This document shows, one piece after another, positions 47,122 through 51,960 of a stretch of DNA of 64,000 nucleotides (the stretch's first letter is position 1; every line of letters begins with the position of its first letter). Source of the DNA: Escherichia phage vB_EcoM_005. The notes beneath the pieces were generated by a model. The model saw only the letters and a list, made by a program, of their open reading frames with translations. It had not been told where the DNA came from and searched no databases. Position numbers and translations under genes: made by a program. The DNA lies in the sequence record MK295203. The stretch is one strand, 5' to 3'.

Positions 47122-47622
47122 ATGAAAAAGTTAATTATCGCAATGAGTATGCTCCTATCAGGTTGCGCAGTCCAATATGGTGATGCAGTTTCGGCCGATG
47201 AAGTTGGTAAAGCTCGTATCGCAGCTGAACAGAAACAATTCGATGGCGAAATGAAATTCCGTGCAGGTTCAGGACTTGTGTATACCCGAGCTAATAATCA
47301 ATGTGGTAATAACTGTGCAAAATATGCTCAACATGAAATCGAATTCCAACGTGAACAAGAGTCCAAGCGTGAAGCGGTACTAGCCAAACACCAGGCAGAA
47401 ATGAAGCGCCAAGATGATTTGTATAAAAAGCAGAAATTGTATGCGATGTGCGTAAACCATATCAATCTACAGATTTCTATCCATGAGGCCCGTTATTACG
47501 AAATGCTCGAAACCGAGAGCTTTGATAAGGCCCGTGATTATAAGAAACAAATCAATAAGCTCAAGACCAAAGTGCCGGCAGCAATAGAACAGTGTATCGA
47601 AATCGGTAAAGATAAGATTTAA
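47122..47622 (+). CDS. lipoprotein, hypothetical
   Basis: signal peptide with lipobox LLSGC; coiled-coil rich mature part. Confidence 0.5.
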   Translation: MKKLIIAMSMLLSGCAVQYGDAVSADEVGKARIAAEQKQFDGEMKFRAGSGLVYTRANNQCGNNCAKYAQHEIEFQREQESKREAVLAKHQAEMKRQDDLYKKQKLYAMCVNHINLQISIHEARYYEMLETESFDKARDYKKQINKLKTKVPAAIEQCIEIGKDKI

Positions 47623-47682
47623 GCAGTATCAATTTATTAAAAATAGTGTATAATGTACCTACATTCACTTGAGGAACAGATA

Positions 47683-49356
47683 ATGAAAAAGGTTGTTATT
47701 TTAGGCGCAGGTCTTGGCTCACGGTTGTATCCAATTACTAACGAAATCCCGAAGGTATTGGTTAACTACAAACAACATACAGTACTAAAACATTTATATG
47801 ATTTGTATAGTAACCAATCAGATGAAATTATTCTGGTTATTCACAGCAAATTTAACGACCTCGTTAAAGGCTATATTAAATCCATTAACATGATTAATAG
47901 TGATAAGCCTAAATTCACTATTCGTAACGTAGATGTGGCCAATGGTTCAGCTCATGCTATCGATTGCATTGCTGAAGATATCATTGGCCATAACGTCCTG
48001 TTTAACTGGTGTGACATCATTCCTGAGGGTCATAAAGTTGAGTGGGATAACGACTACTGTTATACCTACGGGACTGACTGTCGTTTTACATTTGAAGAAC
48101 CGTACTTGCGTGAAATTGGTACTGGCGGTGGCGTGGTTGGTTTGTATCAGGTGGCTAATTGGACAGGTTTCGACCGTTCTAATTATGGTGAAGACCTTGC
48201 CGATAACCTAGATTCAATGGTCTATTTGACTGAACGTAAGCTAGACTTTGTAGTTGATGTCGGTGACAAATTGAAACTGGCTAAGGCCCATGAAGAATCC
48301 GAAATTAACCGTGAATTTAATAAATTAGAGTTCACTGAGAATCTGGCTATTAAAGTACCAACTAACGAATTAGGTAAAGAAATCCAATCTAAAGAAATCA
48401 ATTGGTATAATTCTATTGATTCTGAATTTGTTCCGAGCATTGTAGACTTTGCTCCAGGCGAATTCATTAAAATGGAACGTATCTTTGGTCGCACCATGGC
48501 AGATGCCTACCGGTTTATGTCTAAAGAAACTAAAGTCCTCATGGTTTATAAGGTCATTAGTGCATTACGTTCATTCGGTGGAACTATCGATAACCCATCT
48601 GATGAGCAATGGTATTCCGATGTTAAGAAAGAAGTATTGGACAAGGTCCTGATTCGTAATGCTTCTATTGCCGGATTGATTGAAGGCTTTGCTCCACAGG
48701 GTATTACCCATGTCAATGACTTTAAGGTAGGCGACCCTGAAAAACTTCTTCGTCATGCACTAGAAATTCTGTCTGAACATAAAGAACCGTACCAACTTAT
48801 TCATGGCGACCCGCACTACAGTAATATTATGTTGTCTGACGAAGGTGATATTAAAATCATCGACCCACGTGGTTATTTTGGTAATAGTTCTAAAGGCCCT
48901 GCGATTTATGATGAAGCTAAGGTGCTTTATTCTATCGATGGTTATGACAAATTTAACTCTGACCCTCTATGGGGTGGCTTAACCCGTAACGGAACTCGTG
49001 TATTCGTTGATATTGAAAAGGTCATGCCTTTAGACGATATTCCGATGTGTACATTTAAGCACAAGCTCTGGATTGCTGTTATCTGGATGGCATTGGCAGG
49101 TTACTTTAAAAATAACCCTCTGAAAGCTCTGGGTGCTTATTACAATGGGCTATATCAACTGAGCGTGCTGCTGAAGCGGCATCCTCGTAAGCGTAAGCTT
49201 ATCACAGGTGAATTTGTCGATGAAGTTCGTGACCCTATTACGGCTCAAATTATCACTCGTTGTCCTGATAAGTGGGTTTTGCTTGACCAAGAAACTGGTG
49301 TAAAATATAAACCTACAGGTTCTACTGAACTCCACAAACAATGGAAGAAAATTTAA
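47683..49356 (+). CDS. bifunctional sugar/alcohol-1-phosphate nucleotidyltransferase + kinase (LicC/LicA- or MurU/AmgK-like fusion)
   Basis: N-terminal VILGAGLGSRLYPITNEIPKVLV (nucleotidyltransferase G-x-G-x-R-L loop); C-terminal HGDPHYSNIML and IKIIDPRGYFG (protein-kinase-like HGD...N and IDxE/D motifs of choline/aminoglycoside-type kinases). Confidence 0.7.
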   Translation: MKKVVILGAGLGSRLYPITNEIPKVLVNYKQHTVLKHLYDLYSNQSDEIILVIHSKFNDLVKGYIKSINMINSDKPKFTIRNVDVANGSAHAIDCIAEDIIGHNVLFNWCDIIPEGHKVEWDNDYCYTYGTDCRFTFEEPYLREIGTGGGVVGLYQVANWTGFDRSNYGEDLADNLDSMVYLTERKLDFVVDVGDKLKLAKAHEESEINREFNKLEFTENLAIKVPTNELGKEIQSKEINWYNSIDSEFVPSIVDFAPGEFIKMERIFGRTMADAYRFMSKETKVLMVYKVISALRSFGGTIDNPSDEQWYSDVKKEVLDKVLIRNASIAGLIEGFAPQGITHVNDFKVGDPEKLLRHALEILSEHKEPYQLIHGDPHYSNIMLSDEGDIKIIDPRGYFGNSSKGPAIYDEAKVLYSIDGYDKFNSDPLWGGLTRNGTRVFVDIEKVMPLDDIPMCTFKHKLWIAVIWMALAGYFKNNPLKALGAYYNGLYQLSVLLKRHPRKRKLITGEFVDEVRDPITAQIITRCPDKWVLLDQETGVKYKPTGSTELHKQWKKI

Positions 49357-49739
49357 TGTCGCATCGAGTAGAAAATAAGCCCCATTTATGTTTTGACATC
49401 GATAATACAATCACGGTTTGGAACCATGACCGTGATTACGAAAACTTTAAACCGGACACCGAAATGGTGTCCATGATTAATAAGCTTTATGATGAAGGGT
49501 ACGAGATTACATTGTTCACTGCTCGTGGTATGACTTCATGTGGCCCTGGTCGAATCTTGGTTGAAGTAGTTCCTGCATTGGTTAAGAACCTTGAAAAGAT
49601 TGGATTGAAATATCATAATCTGCTTACACATAAGCCGAGTTATACTTTTATCATCGATGACCGAGCAATCCGTCCTGACCACTTTAAAGAAATGGTTCGT
49701 GAAGGAACTCTTGAAACCTATAAGGCATATCATCCATGA
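49356..49739 (+). CDS. HAD-superfamily phosphatase
   Basis: motif I FDIDNTIT (DxDxT), motif II TLFTARG; 127 aa; TAATG overlap with upstream gene. Confidence 0.6.
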   Translation: MSHRVENKPHLCFDIDNTITVWNHDRDYENFKPDTEMVSMINKLYDEGYEITLFTARGMTSCGPGRILVEVVPALVKNLEKIGLKYHNLLTHKPSYTFIIDDRAIRPDHFKEMVREGTLETYKAYHP

Positions 49740-50272
49740 AACCAAAAATCATTGTTATCGACGGCCCGGATAATTCCGGGAAGTCCACTTTAATTGAATC
49801 ACTTTTATCTGATAAGAAATATCGTCTTATTGATTTTCCTAAAAAGATTAACGGTAAATGCATTTCATTAGGGACCGATAATGACAAGGCTTTAGTCGAG
49901 ACGTTGTATAAGTTTTTAGACCCTAATTTTGTCTACATCTTAGACCGTGGGTATCCTAGTAATATTGTTTACTCGGGATTCCTTCGTGGTGAAATGGACC
50001 CTTATGTAGAACTGGAAGATTGGAAAGGGTTTAAATCTGAATTCAATATTATTGAGGTTATTTTAACCCGTAACCCATTAGATGAAGACTTCGAAGATGA
50101 CCTTATTAAATTAACCAAAGATGAGTTCAACCTAACTATCCGGCAGTATGAAACATGTTTTGAAAACGTGTTTAAAATCTTAAATCACGACGGCCATAAT
50201 AATTTGCTTAATGTTGATATGGTAGAATTAAAACGTCTGAATGAATATATTGAAAATAAGGTGAATAAATGA
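49736..50272 (+). CDS. P-loop kinase (thymidylate/deoxynucleoside kinase-like)
   Basis: Walker A IVIDGPDNSGKST, downstream DRGYPS; 178 aa. Confidence 0.55.
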   Translation: MKPKIIVIDGPDNSGKSTLIESLLSDKKYRLIDFPKKINGKCISLGTDNDKALVETLYKFLDPNFVYILDRGYPSNIVYSGFLRGEMDPYVELEDWKGFKSEFNIIEVILTRNPLDEDFEDDLIKLTKDEFNLTIRQYETCFENVFKILNHDGHNNLLNVDMVELKRLNEYIENKVNK

Positions 50273-50967
50273 AACACATTACCGCTGTTAGTTTTGAAAA
50301 CGCGTTTAAGCAAATGAACGAAGAAATCCTGGAAGCTCCACAGTTTGCAGTTGATTCTCGTATCGGCCGTTGTTATGAAATTGGTTCTGCTTCGGTAGAA
50401 GTACTGGATGCAAGCACCTATAAATTCACCGACCCTCGTATTAATCGTATCAACTATGATTATGCCGAATCTTTCTGGAAATTTATGATTTCTGGTGGTA
50501 CTGATGCCGCCGAAGCATTTAAGGAATACCCTAATGTTGCTAAGTTCATTGATAAGCCGAAAAGTGACGTATTGCCTGCAAACTTCAACACTTTCTATGG
50601 ACCTCGAATTGTGGCCCAACTCCCAGCCCTACTTAAAGAGCTTAAAGAAAAGCCTAACTCGAGACGAGTTGTGTTCCAAATTCTCCAAGAACAAGACCAA
50701 GCTCTCCTTGATTCTGACGAATCCTTAGAATATCCGTGTACCGATTCGGTAACATATTATATTCGTGATGGACGTCTGTATGCACACACTCATATGCGTT
50801 CACAGAACTGTGCTATCGTTATGCAGCTGGATTTCTATCTGCAGGGTAAACTGATGGCCTTTATTGCTGAACAGTGTGGTGTTGGTCTGGGTACGTATTC
50901 CCATACTATGGTTAGTGCACACGTGTTTGAACGTGATTTTGACTACGTTCGAGGATTCCTGAAATGA
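50269..50967 (+). CDS. 42: dCMP hydroxymethylase (gene 42; thymidylate-synthase fold)
   Basis: active-site region EYPCTDSVTYYIRDGRLYAHTHMRSQN aligns with recalled T4 gp42 MCTNTVQYLIRDKKINAVVNMRSND; Cys followed by Thr rather than TS-type PCH. Confidence 0.75.
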   Translation: MKHITAVSFENAFKQMNEEILEAPQFAVDSRIGRCYEIGSASVEVLDASTYKFTDPRINRINYDYAESFWKFMISGGTDAAEAFKEYPNVAKFIDKPKSDVLPANFNTFYGPRIVAQLPALLKELKEKPNSRRVVFQILQEQDQALLDSDESLEYPCTDSVTYYIRDGRLYAHTHMRSQNCAIVMQLDFYLQGKLMAFIAEQCGVGLGTYSHTMVSAHVFERDFDYVRGFLK

Positions 50968-51758
50968 GTCTGTTTATCGTTCCTATTTTCAGTATGCGTA
51001 GTTACGAAACAGGTGAATATGCCGTCCTTAAGGACGGTAATTTTCAACTCCATTTAAACCGTGCTCGCCCAGGTGATTATCTGGCTTATCCTAGAAATTC
51101 GAGCGATATCAAAGAATGTATTGAATTGTTTCCTGAACTGAATTTTGTGCCACTTTGGTATAAAGAAAATGCTTATGAAACTCGTAAACATTTTTGGTCT
51201 GAAAATGAGTTCGTCGTTGATTCATTAATTGAATACTATGACTGTTCAGGCTTAGTAACCGATATCACAGGTTATGATGGCACTCAGACTGTACAATTCA
51301 ACTTTAACATTACAATGGACCCTGAAGTTCCTCGTTATTATATCGATGAGTTTATTGATATCGACGTGTCTTCAGTTGAACGTTCGATTTATACTACAGT
51401 CCTGAATCAATGCCAGAAAGACGTCCTGGTGTCACGAGGTGCGTCCTCTGATAAGATTTTTGTAGACCAAAAGGTAATTAATCCCGCAGTAATTGAGCGT
51501 TACTCTGAAGGTCTAGCGCCTATTAAAATTGATGGTATTTTCCATCCATTCCGTATCTCAGATAAATGCTACCAATTCGAAAGAGTTGTAGACCAAGCTG
51601 CGGCCGTATATTATCAGATTCTGAAATCAAGACCTCATATCATTTATCATGAGAATCCTGGTTTAGTATTCCATCCTGGTCTGGCTGAATTCATTTATTT
51701 CGGTGCCCACATCCATTCTGAGCACGAAATGCCAAGTTATGAGGACGTAGTATGCTAG
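50964..51758 (+). CDS. hypothetical protein in the position of T4 beta-glucosyltransferase; candidate DNA sugar transferase
   Basis: 264 aa between gene 42 and uvsX; no similarity to recalled T4 b-gt; acidic DID motif. Confidence 0.4.
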   Translation: MSLFIVPIFSMRSYETGEYAVLKDGNFQLHLNRARPGDYLAYPRNSSDIKECIELFPELNFVPLWYKENAYETRKHFWSENEFVVDSLIEYYDCSGLVTDITGYDGTQTVQFNFNITMDPEVPRYYIDEFIDIDVSSVERSIYTTVLNQCQKDVLVSRGASSDKIFVDQKVINPAVIERYSEGLAPIKIDGIFHPFRISDKCYQFERVVDQAAAVYYQILKSRPHIIYHENPGLVFHPGLAEFIYFGAHIHSEHEMPSYEDVVC

Positions 51759-51883
51759 GTCCTTTATTGCTTTTTATAATTTTGTTATTATTCTCTTTCG
51801 GAGCCTTGTTATTATTATGCTGGCTCGAGAAACGAGAAGTCCGGAAGATAGTCGATAAGGCTATCAACCGAGGAATAAAATAA
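51752..51883 (+). CDS. small membrane protein, hypothetical
   Basis: 43-aa ORF MLGPLLLFIILLLFSFGALLLLCW... below track threshold. Confidence 0.3.
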   Translation: MLGPLLLFIILLLFSFGALLLLCWLEKREVRKIVDKAINRGIK

Positions 51884-51960
51884 CGCTGTAAATGTGAAGT
51901 GATATAATTACCCTATCTTAAAACGTGAGTAAAATATAATGGTGCCTATGGAAAAATATA

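Follow-up and report, generated by a model that had tools for sequence, protein, structure and literature searches.

A Dhakavirus orthologue of the fused nucleotidyltransferase-kinase AfhE at the head of a putative DNA arabinosylation cassette

Described relatives and analogues

The closest described relative of the enzyme analysed here is AfhE of phage HY126, with its counterparts RB69 gp52:53 (ORF53_52c) and DLP3 gp82; the biochemistry of AfhE was reportedly described by He et al. in Nat Chem Biol in 2026. A 2026 NAR article (PMC13326640) relays that AfhE is reportedly a bifunctional D-arabinose-5-phosphate 1-kinase and UDP-arabinofuranose pyrophosphorylase, the product of which feeds the arabinosylation of 5-hydroxycytosine in phage DNA. 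With reference to the in-vitro experiments of He et al., the article has AfhE convert Araf5P to Araf1,5P2, which AfhF then dephosphorylates, and it names the Dhakaviruses among the phages carrying the cluster. Published mentions of the family go back to 2018 and cover a Dhakavirus member, gp43 of phage IME08 (PMC6024577). With such a fused enzyme, T4-like phages can produce UDP-arabinose, which is not among the nucleotide sugars of their enterobacterial hosts, and arabinose on cytosines helps the phages to evade restriction enzymes and CRISPR-Cas.

In its logic, the route proposed below is identical to the synthesis of ADP-heptose by HldE, GmhB and GmhA, although the enzymes of the two routes are not homologous. 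In the heptose route an isomerase, a bifunctional kinase/transferase working via a bisphosphate and a HAD phosphatase that removes the distal phosphate are used; HldE joins a ribokinase-fold kinase and a cytidylyltransferase-type transferase in the opposite domain order, and serves a heptose with ADP as the carrier. The two folds of the fused enzyme (an APH/choline-kinase-type kinase and a small RmlA-like nucleotidyltransferase) are also those of the pairs LicA+LicC and AmgK+MurU, but in these pairs each activity resides in its own protein, the choline or MurNAc acted on is unphosphorylated, no phosphatase step is involved, the identity is 10-20% and the gene context is unrelated. In its chemistry, MtnK (PDB 2pui) comes nearest to the proposed kinase step, since it phosphorylates C1 of a 5-substituted pentofuranose, and it shares the fold of the kinase domain. 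Unlike the fusion, it is not joined to another enzyme and serves methionine salvage; the identity is 13% and the TM-score about 0.4. Finally, Fkp of Bacteroides fragilis and AFKP80 of Leishmania, the latter using D-arabinose, are bifunctional sugar-1-kinase/GDP-sugar pyrophosphorylases, in which one polypeptide likewise performs C1 phosphorylation and nucleotide-sugar synthesis, but with a GHMP-fold kinase, on free sugars (true salvage), with a GDP carrier and on the pyranose form.

The window, that is, the whole stretch of 64,000 nucleotides analysed here, originates from a Dhakavirus (a JS98/Bp7/IME08-like T-even phage). Its fused protein was aligned end to end with XAN60479.1 of HY126 (557 against 562 aa, 43% identity, E 2e-144) and over the full length with Bas46_0146 (43% identity, E 4e-142), which is annotated as a 'putative enzyme involved in UDP-arabinose biosynthesis'. 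Synteny and the description in PMC13326640 suggest that XAN60479.1 is AfhE itself. The order nucleotidyltransferase, kinase, tail is shared with the HY126, RB69 and DLP3 proteins. As in HY126, the gene is located between those for DNA polymerase and UvsX, the same HAD phosphatase comes next, and the cassette includes a ThyA homologue and a glycosyltransferase. The Dhakavirus locus differs from that of HY126 in its diverged enzyme and in lacking a phage isomerase, a U32-like protein and a second arabinosyltransferase. We consider it quite likely that the gene is the Dhakavirus orthologue of AfhE, RB69 gp52:53 and DLP3 gp82 and that the whole explanation, including the arabinose pathway, applies to it.

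Gene start, integrity and domains

The gene is a complete CDS of 557 codons plus stop in the list of open reading frames, in which its ORF spans 47653-49356 on the plus strand. Its features are as follows.

47683..49356, plus strand: AfhE-like bifunctional enzyme CDS (ORF list, orthologue identity, PHROG 4098, purifying selection against Bp7)
47671..47676, plus strand: ribosome-binding site GAGGAA, 6 nt 5' of the ATG at 47683, read directly from the sequence
47683..48297, plus strand: sugar-1-phosphate nucleotidyltransferase domain, residues 1-205 (Pfam PF00483, PDB profile matches, Foldseek, secondary-structure boundary of the model)
47704..47754, plus strand: nucleotide-binding signature GAGLGSRLYPITNEIPK, residues 8-24, with G10, R14 and K24 invariant
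48004..48024, plus strand: NWCDIIP segment with D111 (invariant column and coordinates)
48250..48267, plus strand: VVDVGD segment with D192, G194 and D195 (invariant columns and coordinates)
48298..49182, plus strand: small-molecule kinase domain of the APH/choline-kinase fold, residues 206-500 (PF01636, PHROG 21938, domain model, Foldseek)
48802..48825, plus strand: catalytic loop HGDPHYSN, residues 374-381, with H374, G375, D376, S380 and N381 invariant
48856..48882, plus strand: Mg-binding segment IIDPRGYFG, residues 392-400, with I393 to G400 invariant
49183..49353, plus strand: C-terminal tail of 57 aa, residues 501-557 (short beta strands, model pLDDT 70-86)

Judged from the sequence, the start at 47683 (MKKVV...) is better than that at 47653, because it is preceded by the GAGGAA ribosome-binding site and because MKK is the N terminus of all homologues across genera in the alignment. 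The upstream ATG at 47653 falls within a TATAAT box (47649-47654, read directly). The longer start is annotated in the GenBank entries for close relatives; as a real gene, this longer ORF was ruled out by the ribosome-binding site and the N-terminal conservation. The first-pass annotation had already begun the gene at 47683, and the three motifs that it quoted were located at the positions listed.

When the gene was compared with that of phage Bp7, 49 of the 56 nucleotide differences fell at third codon positions and only four amino-acid changes resulted, a pattern that indicates strong purifying selection. Scans for promoters and terminators yielded no signal that exceeded the shuffled background. 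The PHROG 4098 profile matched residues 1-557 (E 4e-269), and the AlphaFold2 model of the whole protein reached a pLDDT of 92.5 and a pTM of 0.88. A chimeric origin of the fusion was ruled out, since no domain stands out in its identity to HY126 (48%, 43% and 47%). Pfam, PHROG 4098, AlphaFold2 and Foldseek bore out, far beyond what chance would give, what had been proposed at first, a sugar-1-phosphate nucleotidyltransferase and a small-molecule kinase in one polypeptide. The sizes proposed for the two parts (about 230 and 250 aa) were slightly off, the nucleotidyltransferase taking up about 205 aa and the kinase about 295 aa, with the tail in addition.

In the N-terminal domain, Pfam NTP_transferase (PF00483) matched residues 3-100 (E 2.4e-8, 34.3 bits, cut-off 21.2). 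The PDB profile matches comprised HddC, LicC (1jyk, E 6.8e-11), GDP-mannose pyrophosphorylase and RmlA, and the Foldseek matches GalU, RmlA, HddC and MurU (4y7t). The GxGxR...PK signature and the acidic metal ligands are present, with D111, D192 and D195 invariant. D111 would be a metal-binding Asp of the nucleotidyltransferase, a role that we presume by analogy with RmlA-type enzymes, and the VVDVGD segment probably forms the second metal site or the sugar-phosphate site. When PDB sequences were searched with the family profile, matches were to the nucleotidyltransferase domain only, and no solved AfhE-like structure came up. GlmU, the label used in several GenBank records, was ruled out: in the PDB profile search it matched the N-terminal domain only weakly (E 0.006), and the C-terminal half has a kinase fold, not that of a left-handed beta-helix acetyltransferase.

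For the C-terminal domain, Pfam APH (PF01636) matched residues 346-417 (E 9.6e-6, 26.0 bits, cut-off 23.2) and PHROG 21938 residues 207-499, and the domain modelled alone had a pLDDT of 93.7. APH(2''), choline/ethanolamine kinases, LicA (4r78), glucosamine kinase and 5-methylthioribose kinase were found with Foldseek. The invariant residues include K224 and E238, probably the Lys-Glu pair of the ATP site, as well as H374, D376, N381 and D394, the last of which is equivalent to the Asp in the DFG motif of protein kinases. Both folds and the full set of catalytic residues are therefore present. An unrelated C-terminal fold or a loss of the catalytic Asp/His residues, which the first-pass annotation had named as evidence against its reading, was not encountered; together with these six positions, G10, R14, K24, D111, D192 and D195 do not vary in the family. 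The C-terminal tail is conserved in the T4-like phages and absent from the bacterial and distant viral homologues: the bacterial matches stop at about residue 497, and the distant ones span only 87-89% of the query.

The cassette and the wider family

The gene opens a five-gene cassette, in which neighbours overlap by 4-16 nt according to the ORF list. The four genes that follow it are these.

49341..49739, plus strand: AfhF-like HAD phosphatase, 132 aa, with an FDIDNT motif; its first 16 nt are shared with the 3' end of the fusion gene (PHROG 1238; 64% identical to the phosphatase of Bas46)
49736..50272, plus strand: thymidylate-kinase-like P-loop protein, 178 aa, counterpart of RB69 gp45; 4-nt overlap with each neighbouring gene (37% identity to the Mosigvirus cassette counterpart)
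50269..50967, plus strand: thymidylate-synthase homologue, predicted 5-hydroxy-dCMP synthase, 232 aa (PF00303, 79% identity to the Bas46 protein)
50964..51758, plus strand: putative DNA arabinosyltransferase, 264 aa, which would use the UDP-sugar (60% identity to Bas46_0141, PHROG 3891)

At these identities, all four are orthologous to the members of the Mosigvirus arabinosylation cassette. The role given to the phosphatase is taken from PMC13326640, which also describes fold searches in which the phage HAD matches GmhB-type phosphatases. The ThyA homologue has the active-site stretch RSQNCA[IV]VMQLDF in common with HY126 and Bas46. Alignments with E. coli ThyA place a two-residue gap in this stretch; only if the register is left ungapped, so that the spacing from the Cys to the specificity residue is kept, does N180 fall at the position of the published D169N signature. 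In this particular phage, the glycosyltransferase has lost 33 aa in frame, a deletion absent from every other Dhakavirus record that may inactivate it; this is a small new point.

No arabinose-5-phosphate isomerase (SIS) was matched by tblastn in the 64-kb window, nor in the whole Bp7 genome (E<=1). The clade of Dhakavirus, Marfavirus and Proteus phages is the only T4-like branch in which the phage isomerase, the U32-like protein and the second transferase are all missing. The Dhakavirus cassette is hence a minimal one, with a single transferase and without an isomerase, and this is modest new information. The same clade is the most divergent T4-like branch of the enzyme, with 42-49% identity to all other members, which are 47-81% identical among themselves. 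Nevertheless, it retains 60 of the 60 invariant columns of the family and differs from otherwise conserved columns at only seven positions, all of them conservative hydrophobic changes and none polar or charged.

The first-pass annotation had called the fusion unusual, and in this it was mistaken. Fusion is the norm in what is a large family: it was found in 366 phage records, none of which covers less than 80% of the query. Among bacteria, the species-representative genomes that carry it number at least 536, one example being the chromosome of Trichodesmium erythraeum; these homologues were recovered with the IIDPRGYFG motif as the seed. Still larger four-domain proteins (HAD+SIS+NT+kinase) were also detected. 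A SIS gene lies directly upstream of the fusion in a jumbo-phage-like contig, and within 6 kb of it in 42 of the 80 bacterial loci. The four-domain fusions and the nearby SIS genes constitute an independent genomic link to arabinose-5-phosphate isomerase. The HAD of the window was matched in only three of the 80 loci of the bacterial collection, two of these on phage-like contigs, and the small ORFs that follow the fused gene in the bacteria Trichodesmium and Sporofaciens proved not to be AfhF homologues. Since the gene belongs to the described AfhE/RB69 gp52:53 phage family, the original observation is correct and ordinary; before 2018 it would have made a promising lead.

Proposed pathway and alternative readings

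By the route favoured here, the C-terminal kinase would transfer a phosphate from ATP to the hydroxyl at the anomeric C1 of D-arabinofuranose-5-phosphate, so that arabinofuranose-1,5-bisphosphate is formed. The AfhF-like HAD phosphatase, encoded by the overlapping downstream gene, would take off the 5-phosphate, and the N-terminal nucleotidyltransferase would then form UDP-arabinofuranose from arabinofuranose-1-phosphate and UTP. The ThyA homologue of the cassette would make 5-hydroxy-dCMP, and the glycosyltransferase at the cassette end would attach the sugar to 5-hydroxycytosine once the phage DNA has been replicated. Hypermodified in this way, the DNA would resist restriction enzymes and CRISPR-Cas. 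For the Dhakavirus protein these enzyme activities are predicted, being taken from the AfhE literature.

As the Dhakaviruses encode no isomerase, their arabinose-5-phosphate would come from the host enzymes KdsD and GutQ, with which E. coli itself makes this compound for Kdo synthesis. Because the host has isomerases of its own, the one found in other phages is an accessory to the pathway and not to the enzyme. We infer that the Dhakavirus sugar is arabinose, that its carrier is UDP and that the substrate is drawn from the host; no chemical analysis of Dhakavirus DNA was found in the literature search. The minimal cassette therefore predicts dependence on host arabinose-5-phosphate and mono-arabinosylated DNA.

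Arabinose had been listed among the candidate substrates at the outset, a guess in the right direction. The accompanying statement that substrate specificity is unreadable no longer holds, as the gene context and the characterised orthologue now supply it. Nucleotide specificity is not legible in the sequence itself. The initial description of the enzyme as one of salvage is probably wrong, because the reported route runs from the sugar-5-phosphate through the 1,5-bisphosphate and the 1-phosphate to the UDP-sugar, with AfhE acting on arabinose-5-phosphate and the separate HAD phosphatase acting next, as relayed in PMC13326640.

A phosphatase-first order is the form in which salvage would survive: the HAD or the host would yield free D-arabinose, which an anomeric kinase (as AmgK or NahK) would phosphorylate for direct activation of the 1-phosphate. 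Table 1 of PMC13326640 keeps this older step order for the RB69 and DLP3 proteins, with the labels 'Phosphorylates Ara to Araf1p' and 'dephosphorylates Araf5p to Ara'. The structural neighbours of the kinase include enzymes acting on unphosphorylated sugars (glucosamine kinase and 5-methylthioribose kinase), and the two step orders are not separable by gene content alone. However, this order is improbable in view of the text of that article, where, after He et al., AfhE forms the bisphosphate and AfhF follows, and of the invariant basic residues K321, R325, R396 and K413 of the kinase domain, which might hold a phosphate.

The same architecture might also serve another substrate in the clade of Dhakavirus, Marfavirus and Proteus phages (e.g., ribose-5-phosphate) or another nucleotide carrier, and lead to a different glycosyl-5-hydroxycytosine. 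According to the literature, 5-hydroxycytosine bears different sugars in different phages; moreover, this clade is the family outlier, the enzyme, at 43% identity, is far more diverged than its neighbours (60-79%), and the isomerase is missing from the Bp7 genome altogether. Such a change is nonetheless very improbable given the retention of every invariant column, the few and conservative clade-specific changes, and a transferase and a phosphatase 60-64% identical to those of phages shown to bear arabinose. Furthermore, E. coli has arabinose-5-phosphate of its own, made for Kdo synthesis, and about half of the bacterial homologues likewise have no adjacent isomerase. Taken more broadly, a shift of either substrate or supply in this branch, to another pentose phosphate or to nothing beyond the small, Kdo-dedicated arabinose-5-phosphate pool of the host, is unlikely. 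If the host pool were used, phage DNA modification would depend on host KdsD and GutQ, and if a different pentose phosphate were activated, a glycosyl-5-hydroxycytosine of an undescribed kind would result.

A fusion of a choline kinase and a phosphocholine cytidylyltransferase of the LicA/LicC type, or a MurNAc-recycling enzyme of the AmgK/MurU type, acting on host envelope precursors, can be dismissed as far-fetched, since LicC, MurU and LicA, although among the sequence and structure matches, resemble the domains at the level of the fold only, the gene is part of a DNA-modification cassette with orthologues tied to arabinose, and no choline or muropeptide genes are nearby.

With the AfhE-like reading preferred, the practical value for the window lies in the annotation of the gene and of its phosphatase partner. 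In public records, the former appears as a 'hypothetical protein' and the latter as a 'phosphoheptose isomerase'.

The fused gene and its domains

Genes of the window
47653-49356, + strand, ORF (from the ORF list) holding the fusion gene
49341-49739, + strand, HAD-type phosphatase of 132 aa, with the DxDxT motif FDIDNT
50964-51758, + strand, putative DNA arabinosyltransferase of 264 aa (PHROG 3891)

The nucleotidyltransferase-kinase fusion read from the sequence in the first-pass annotation was confirmed, and the motifs quoted for it were found at residues 8-24, 374-381 and 392-400. The proposed start at ATG 47683 was also borne out. In the sequence, GAGGAA (47671-47676) stands before this codon, the upstream ATG 47653 falls within a TATAAT box, and the MKK encoded from 47683 is the N-terminus in all homologues of other phage genera; hence, a protein of 557 residues was assigned. 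Compared with the Dhakavirus Bp7, the gene showed 56 nucleotide differences, 49 of them at third codon positions, and only four amino-acid changes, which at the sequence level indicates a real gene under purifying selection.

Pfam profiles assigned residues 3-100 to NTP_transferase (E 2.4e-8) and residues 346-417 to APH (E 9.6e-6), both exceeding the curated cut-off, and the whole protein (residues 1-557) matched PHROG 4098 (E 4e-269), labelled ‘unknown function’. An AlphaFold2 model was obtained from 44 homologues (pLDDT 92.5, pTM 0.88), and the Foldseek matches of its N-terminal half in the PDB were GalU, RmlA, HddC and MurU. Residues 206-557, modelled separately (pLDDT 93.7), matched APH(2''), choline/ethanolamine kinases, LicA, glucosamine kinase and 5-methylthioribose kinase, with TM-scores of 0.45-0.55 and identities of 10-16%. 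In the family alignment, the catalytic residues G10, R14, K24, D111, D192 and D195 of the nucleotidyltransferase domain and K224, E238, H374, G375, D376, N381 and D394 of the kinase domain were invariant. The domain assignment is correct; neither an unrelated C-terminal fold nor a loss of catalytic Asp/His residues was found.

The C-terminal tail (residues 501-557, window 49183-49353) consists of short beta strands with the consensus TKxPxKWxLxDxETGxxYxP. These 57 residues are common to the T4-like phage versions and missing from the bacterial and distant viral homologues.

Relatives in phages and bacteria

The fusion protein was matched by tblastn in 366 of 50,697 phage records, each over at least 80% of the query.

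Identity of phage homologues to the fusion protein (tblastn)
Dhakavirus: 95-100%
Klebsiella Marfa-like phages: about 80%
One Proteus phage: 72%
Mosigvirus (RB69-like), Acinetobacter, Serratia, Yersinia and Shewanella T4-like phages: 42-47%
Some jumbo phages: 24-28%

In 50 Dhakavirus records (JS98, JS10, IME08, Bp7, QL01, WG01 and MX01 among them) the gene was 95-97% identical in DNA and annotated as ‘hypothetical protein’. The full-length orthologue of the Mosigvirus-type phage Bas46 (43% identity, E 4e-142) is annotated as a ‘putative enzyme involved in UDP-arabinose biosynthesis’. The orthologue of phage HY126 (XAN60479.1), probably AfhE itself, likewise aligned over the full length (E 2e-144), with identity evenly spread over the nucleotidyltransferase (48%), kinase (43%) and tail (47%). 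Several GenBank records name the protein GlmU, mannose-1-phosphate guanyltransferase or UDP-glucose dehydrogenase.

RB69 ORF053c and ORF052c have been described as one gene of 561 residues, with a proposed role in UDP-arabinose synthesis and with the Dhakavirus IME08 gp43 named as a full-length homologue (Thomas et al., 2018, PMC6024577); the same proteins were listed across Tevenvirinae in a 2021 comparative study. Arabinosylated 5-hydroxycytosine has been shown in the DNA of RB69 and DLP3, the ThyA homologue was identified as a synthase of 5-hydroxy-dCMP that depends on flavin, and Dhakaviruses are listed as carriers of the cluster (Lee et al., 2026, PMC13326640). The AfhE-like family is already described, annotated and biochemically characterised, and its Dhakavirus member has been in print since 2018. 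The remaining value lies in an improved annotation and in a prediction that can be tested, namely a dependence of Dhakaviruses on host arabinose-5-phosphate.

The fusion had been regarded as unusual, a view not borne out by a bacterial scan with one genome per species, in which at least 536 genomes encoded the fused protein (25-28% identity, residues 1 to about 497). Two examples have an adjacent SIS or SIS-CBS isomerase gene:
L055, 4810-7497, fusion homologue on the chromosome of Trichodesmium erythraeum IMS101
L057, 6001-8099, fusion homologue of Sporofaciens musculi

Such a gene was present within 6 kb in 42 of the 80 retrieved bacterial loci (L010-L089), and this linkage suggests a nucleotide-arabinose-type pathway for glycans. 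Genes for an ABC exporter, a TylF-type methyltransferase and radical-SAM enzymes also occur nearby.

Furthermore, metagenomic proteins of 922-946 aa on AT-rich contigs (P0068, P0079, P0094 and locus L008, 14-2854) carried HAD_2, SIS isomerase, nucleotidyltransferase and kinase domains in a single chain, which would comprise the whole route from ribulose-5-phosphate to nucleotide sugar. In a 316-kb phage-like contig, a SIS gene lay directly upstream of a fusion homologue (32% identity). These four-domain fusions, the contig and the bacterial SIS linkage independently support the link to arabinose-5-phosphate. A sulfotransferase gene adjoins one of the four-domain genes.

The cassette and the proposed order of steps

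The gene order was regA, DNA polymerase gp43, imm, a lipoprotein-like gene, the fusion gene, the HAD-type phosphatase, a thymidylate-kinase-like P-loop protein, the thymidylate-synthase homologue, the PHROG 3891 protein and uvsX, with mutual overlaps of 4 to 16 nt among the five genes starting with the fusion gene. The neighbouring cassette genes have orthologues in Bas46, at identities of 64% (phosphatase), 79% (ThyA homologue), 60% (glycosyltransferase) and 37% (P-loop protein). The label ‘phosphoheptose isomerase’ on the phosphatase in RefSeq and PHROGs is a misnomer.

The stretch RSQNCA[IV]VMQLDF of the ThyA homologue was common to the window, HY126 and Bas46. In ungapped register (Cys157+23 and Cys157+31 as ThyA 169 and 177) the published D169N signature would fall on N180, a mapping that is not certain because BLAST and MAFFT place a two-residue gap there instead.

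In the proposed route, the kinase domain would phosphorylate arabinose-5-phosphate at C1, the product of the overlapping HAD gene would remove the 5-phosphate, the nucleotidyltransferase domain would make UDP-arabinofuranose, and the transferase would attach the sugar to 5-hydroxycytosine in DNA. The ADP-heptose pathway (GmhA, HldE, GmhB) follows the same logic, although the folds are unrelated. An order in which the phosphatase acts first and the kinase domain then works on free arabinose, an earlier proposal still kept in Table 1 of PMC13326640, is improbable: as He et al. are summarised in that paper, AfhE turns arabinofuranose-5-phosphate into the 1,5-bisphosphate, from which AfhF, a phosphatase dependent on Mg, yields the 1-phosphate. 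The same report leaves the salvage role first suggested for the fused enzyme unsupported.

Dhakavirus peculiarities

Searches of the window and of the complete Bp7 genome recovered neither a phage-type arabinose-5-phosphate isomerase nor a counterpart of RB69 gp50, the U32-like protein, and Bp7 also had no homologue of the second arabinosyltransferase (RB69 gp3/Bas46_0103). The Dhakavirus cytosine-arabinosylation cassette is minimal, without these three proteins, and Dhakavirus DNA is expected to carry mono-arabinosylated 5-hydroxycytosine. The slot held by the isomerase gene in Mosigviruses is filled by imm and the lipoprotein-like ORF (166 aa, window 47122-47622; PHROG 1754, ‘unknown function’).

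A changed substrate was considered because of this reduced cassette and because, of all branches, that of the Dhakavirus, Marfavirus and Proteus-phage enzymes is the most diverged: its identity to all the other enzymes is 42-49%, whereas these reach 47-81% with one another. Nevertheless, use of a different sugar is very improbable, since this clade keeps every invariant family column and, among the otherwise conserved columns, differs at only seven, each time by a conservative hydrophobic substitution, and since E. coli itself produces arabinose-5-phosphate, for Kdo synthesis.

Additionally, the putative arabinosyltransferase showed, against Bp7, a clean in-frame 99-nt deletion with its junction near 51608, taking out 33 aa (EGSRLYITDPNDSFKREDYRPDVEIIKFKPSKVE). 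All 52 Dhakavirus records with a match lack the deletion, as each matches in at least two pieces (610 nt versus 511 nt of query); the deletion may either inactivate the putative transferase or be an assembly artefact. A segment of ~125 nt (window about 51750-51885) separates the end of the transferase gene from uvsX and is present in IME08, JS98 and JS10 and absent from Bp7, WG01 and MX01; it codes for a hydrophobic peptide of 43 aa (MLGPLLLFIILLLFSFGALLLLCWLEKREVRKIVDKAINRGIK) that starts at an ATG overlapping the stop codon of the transferase gene.
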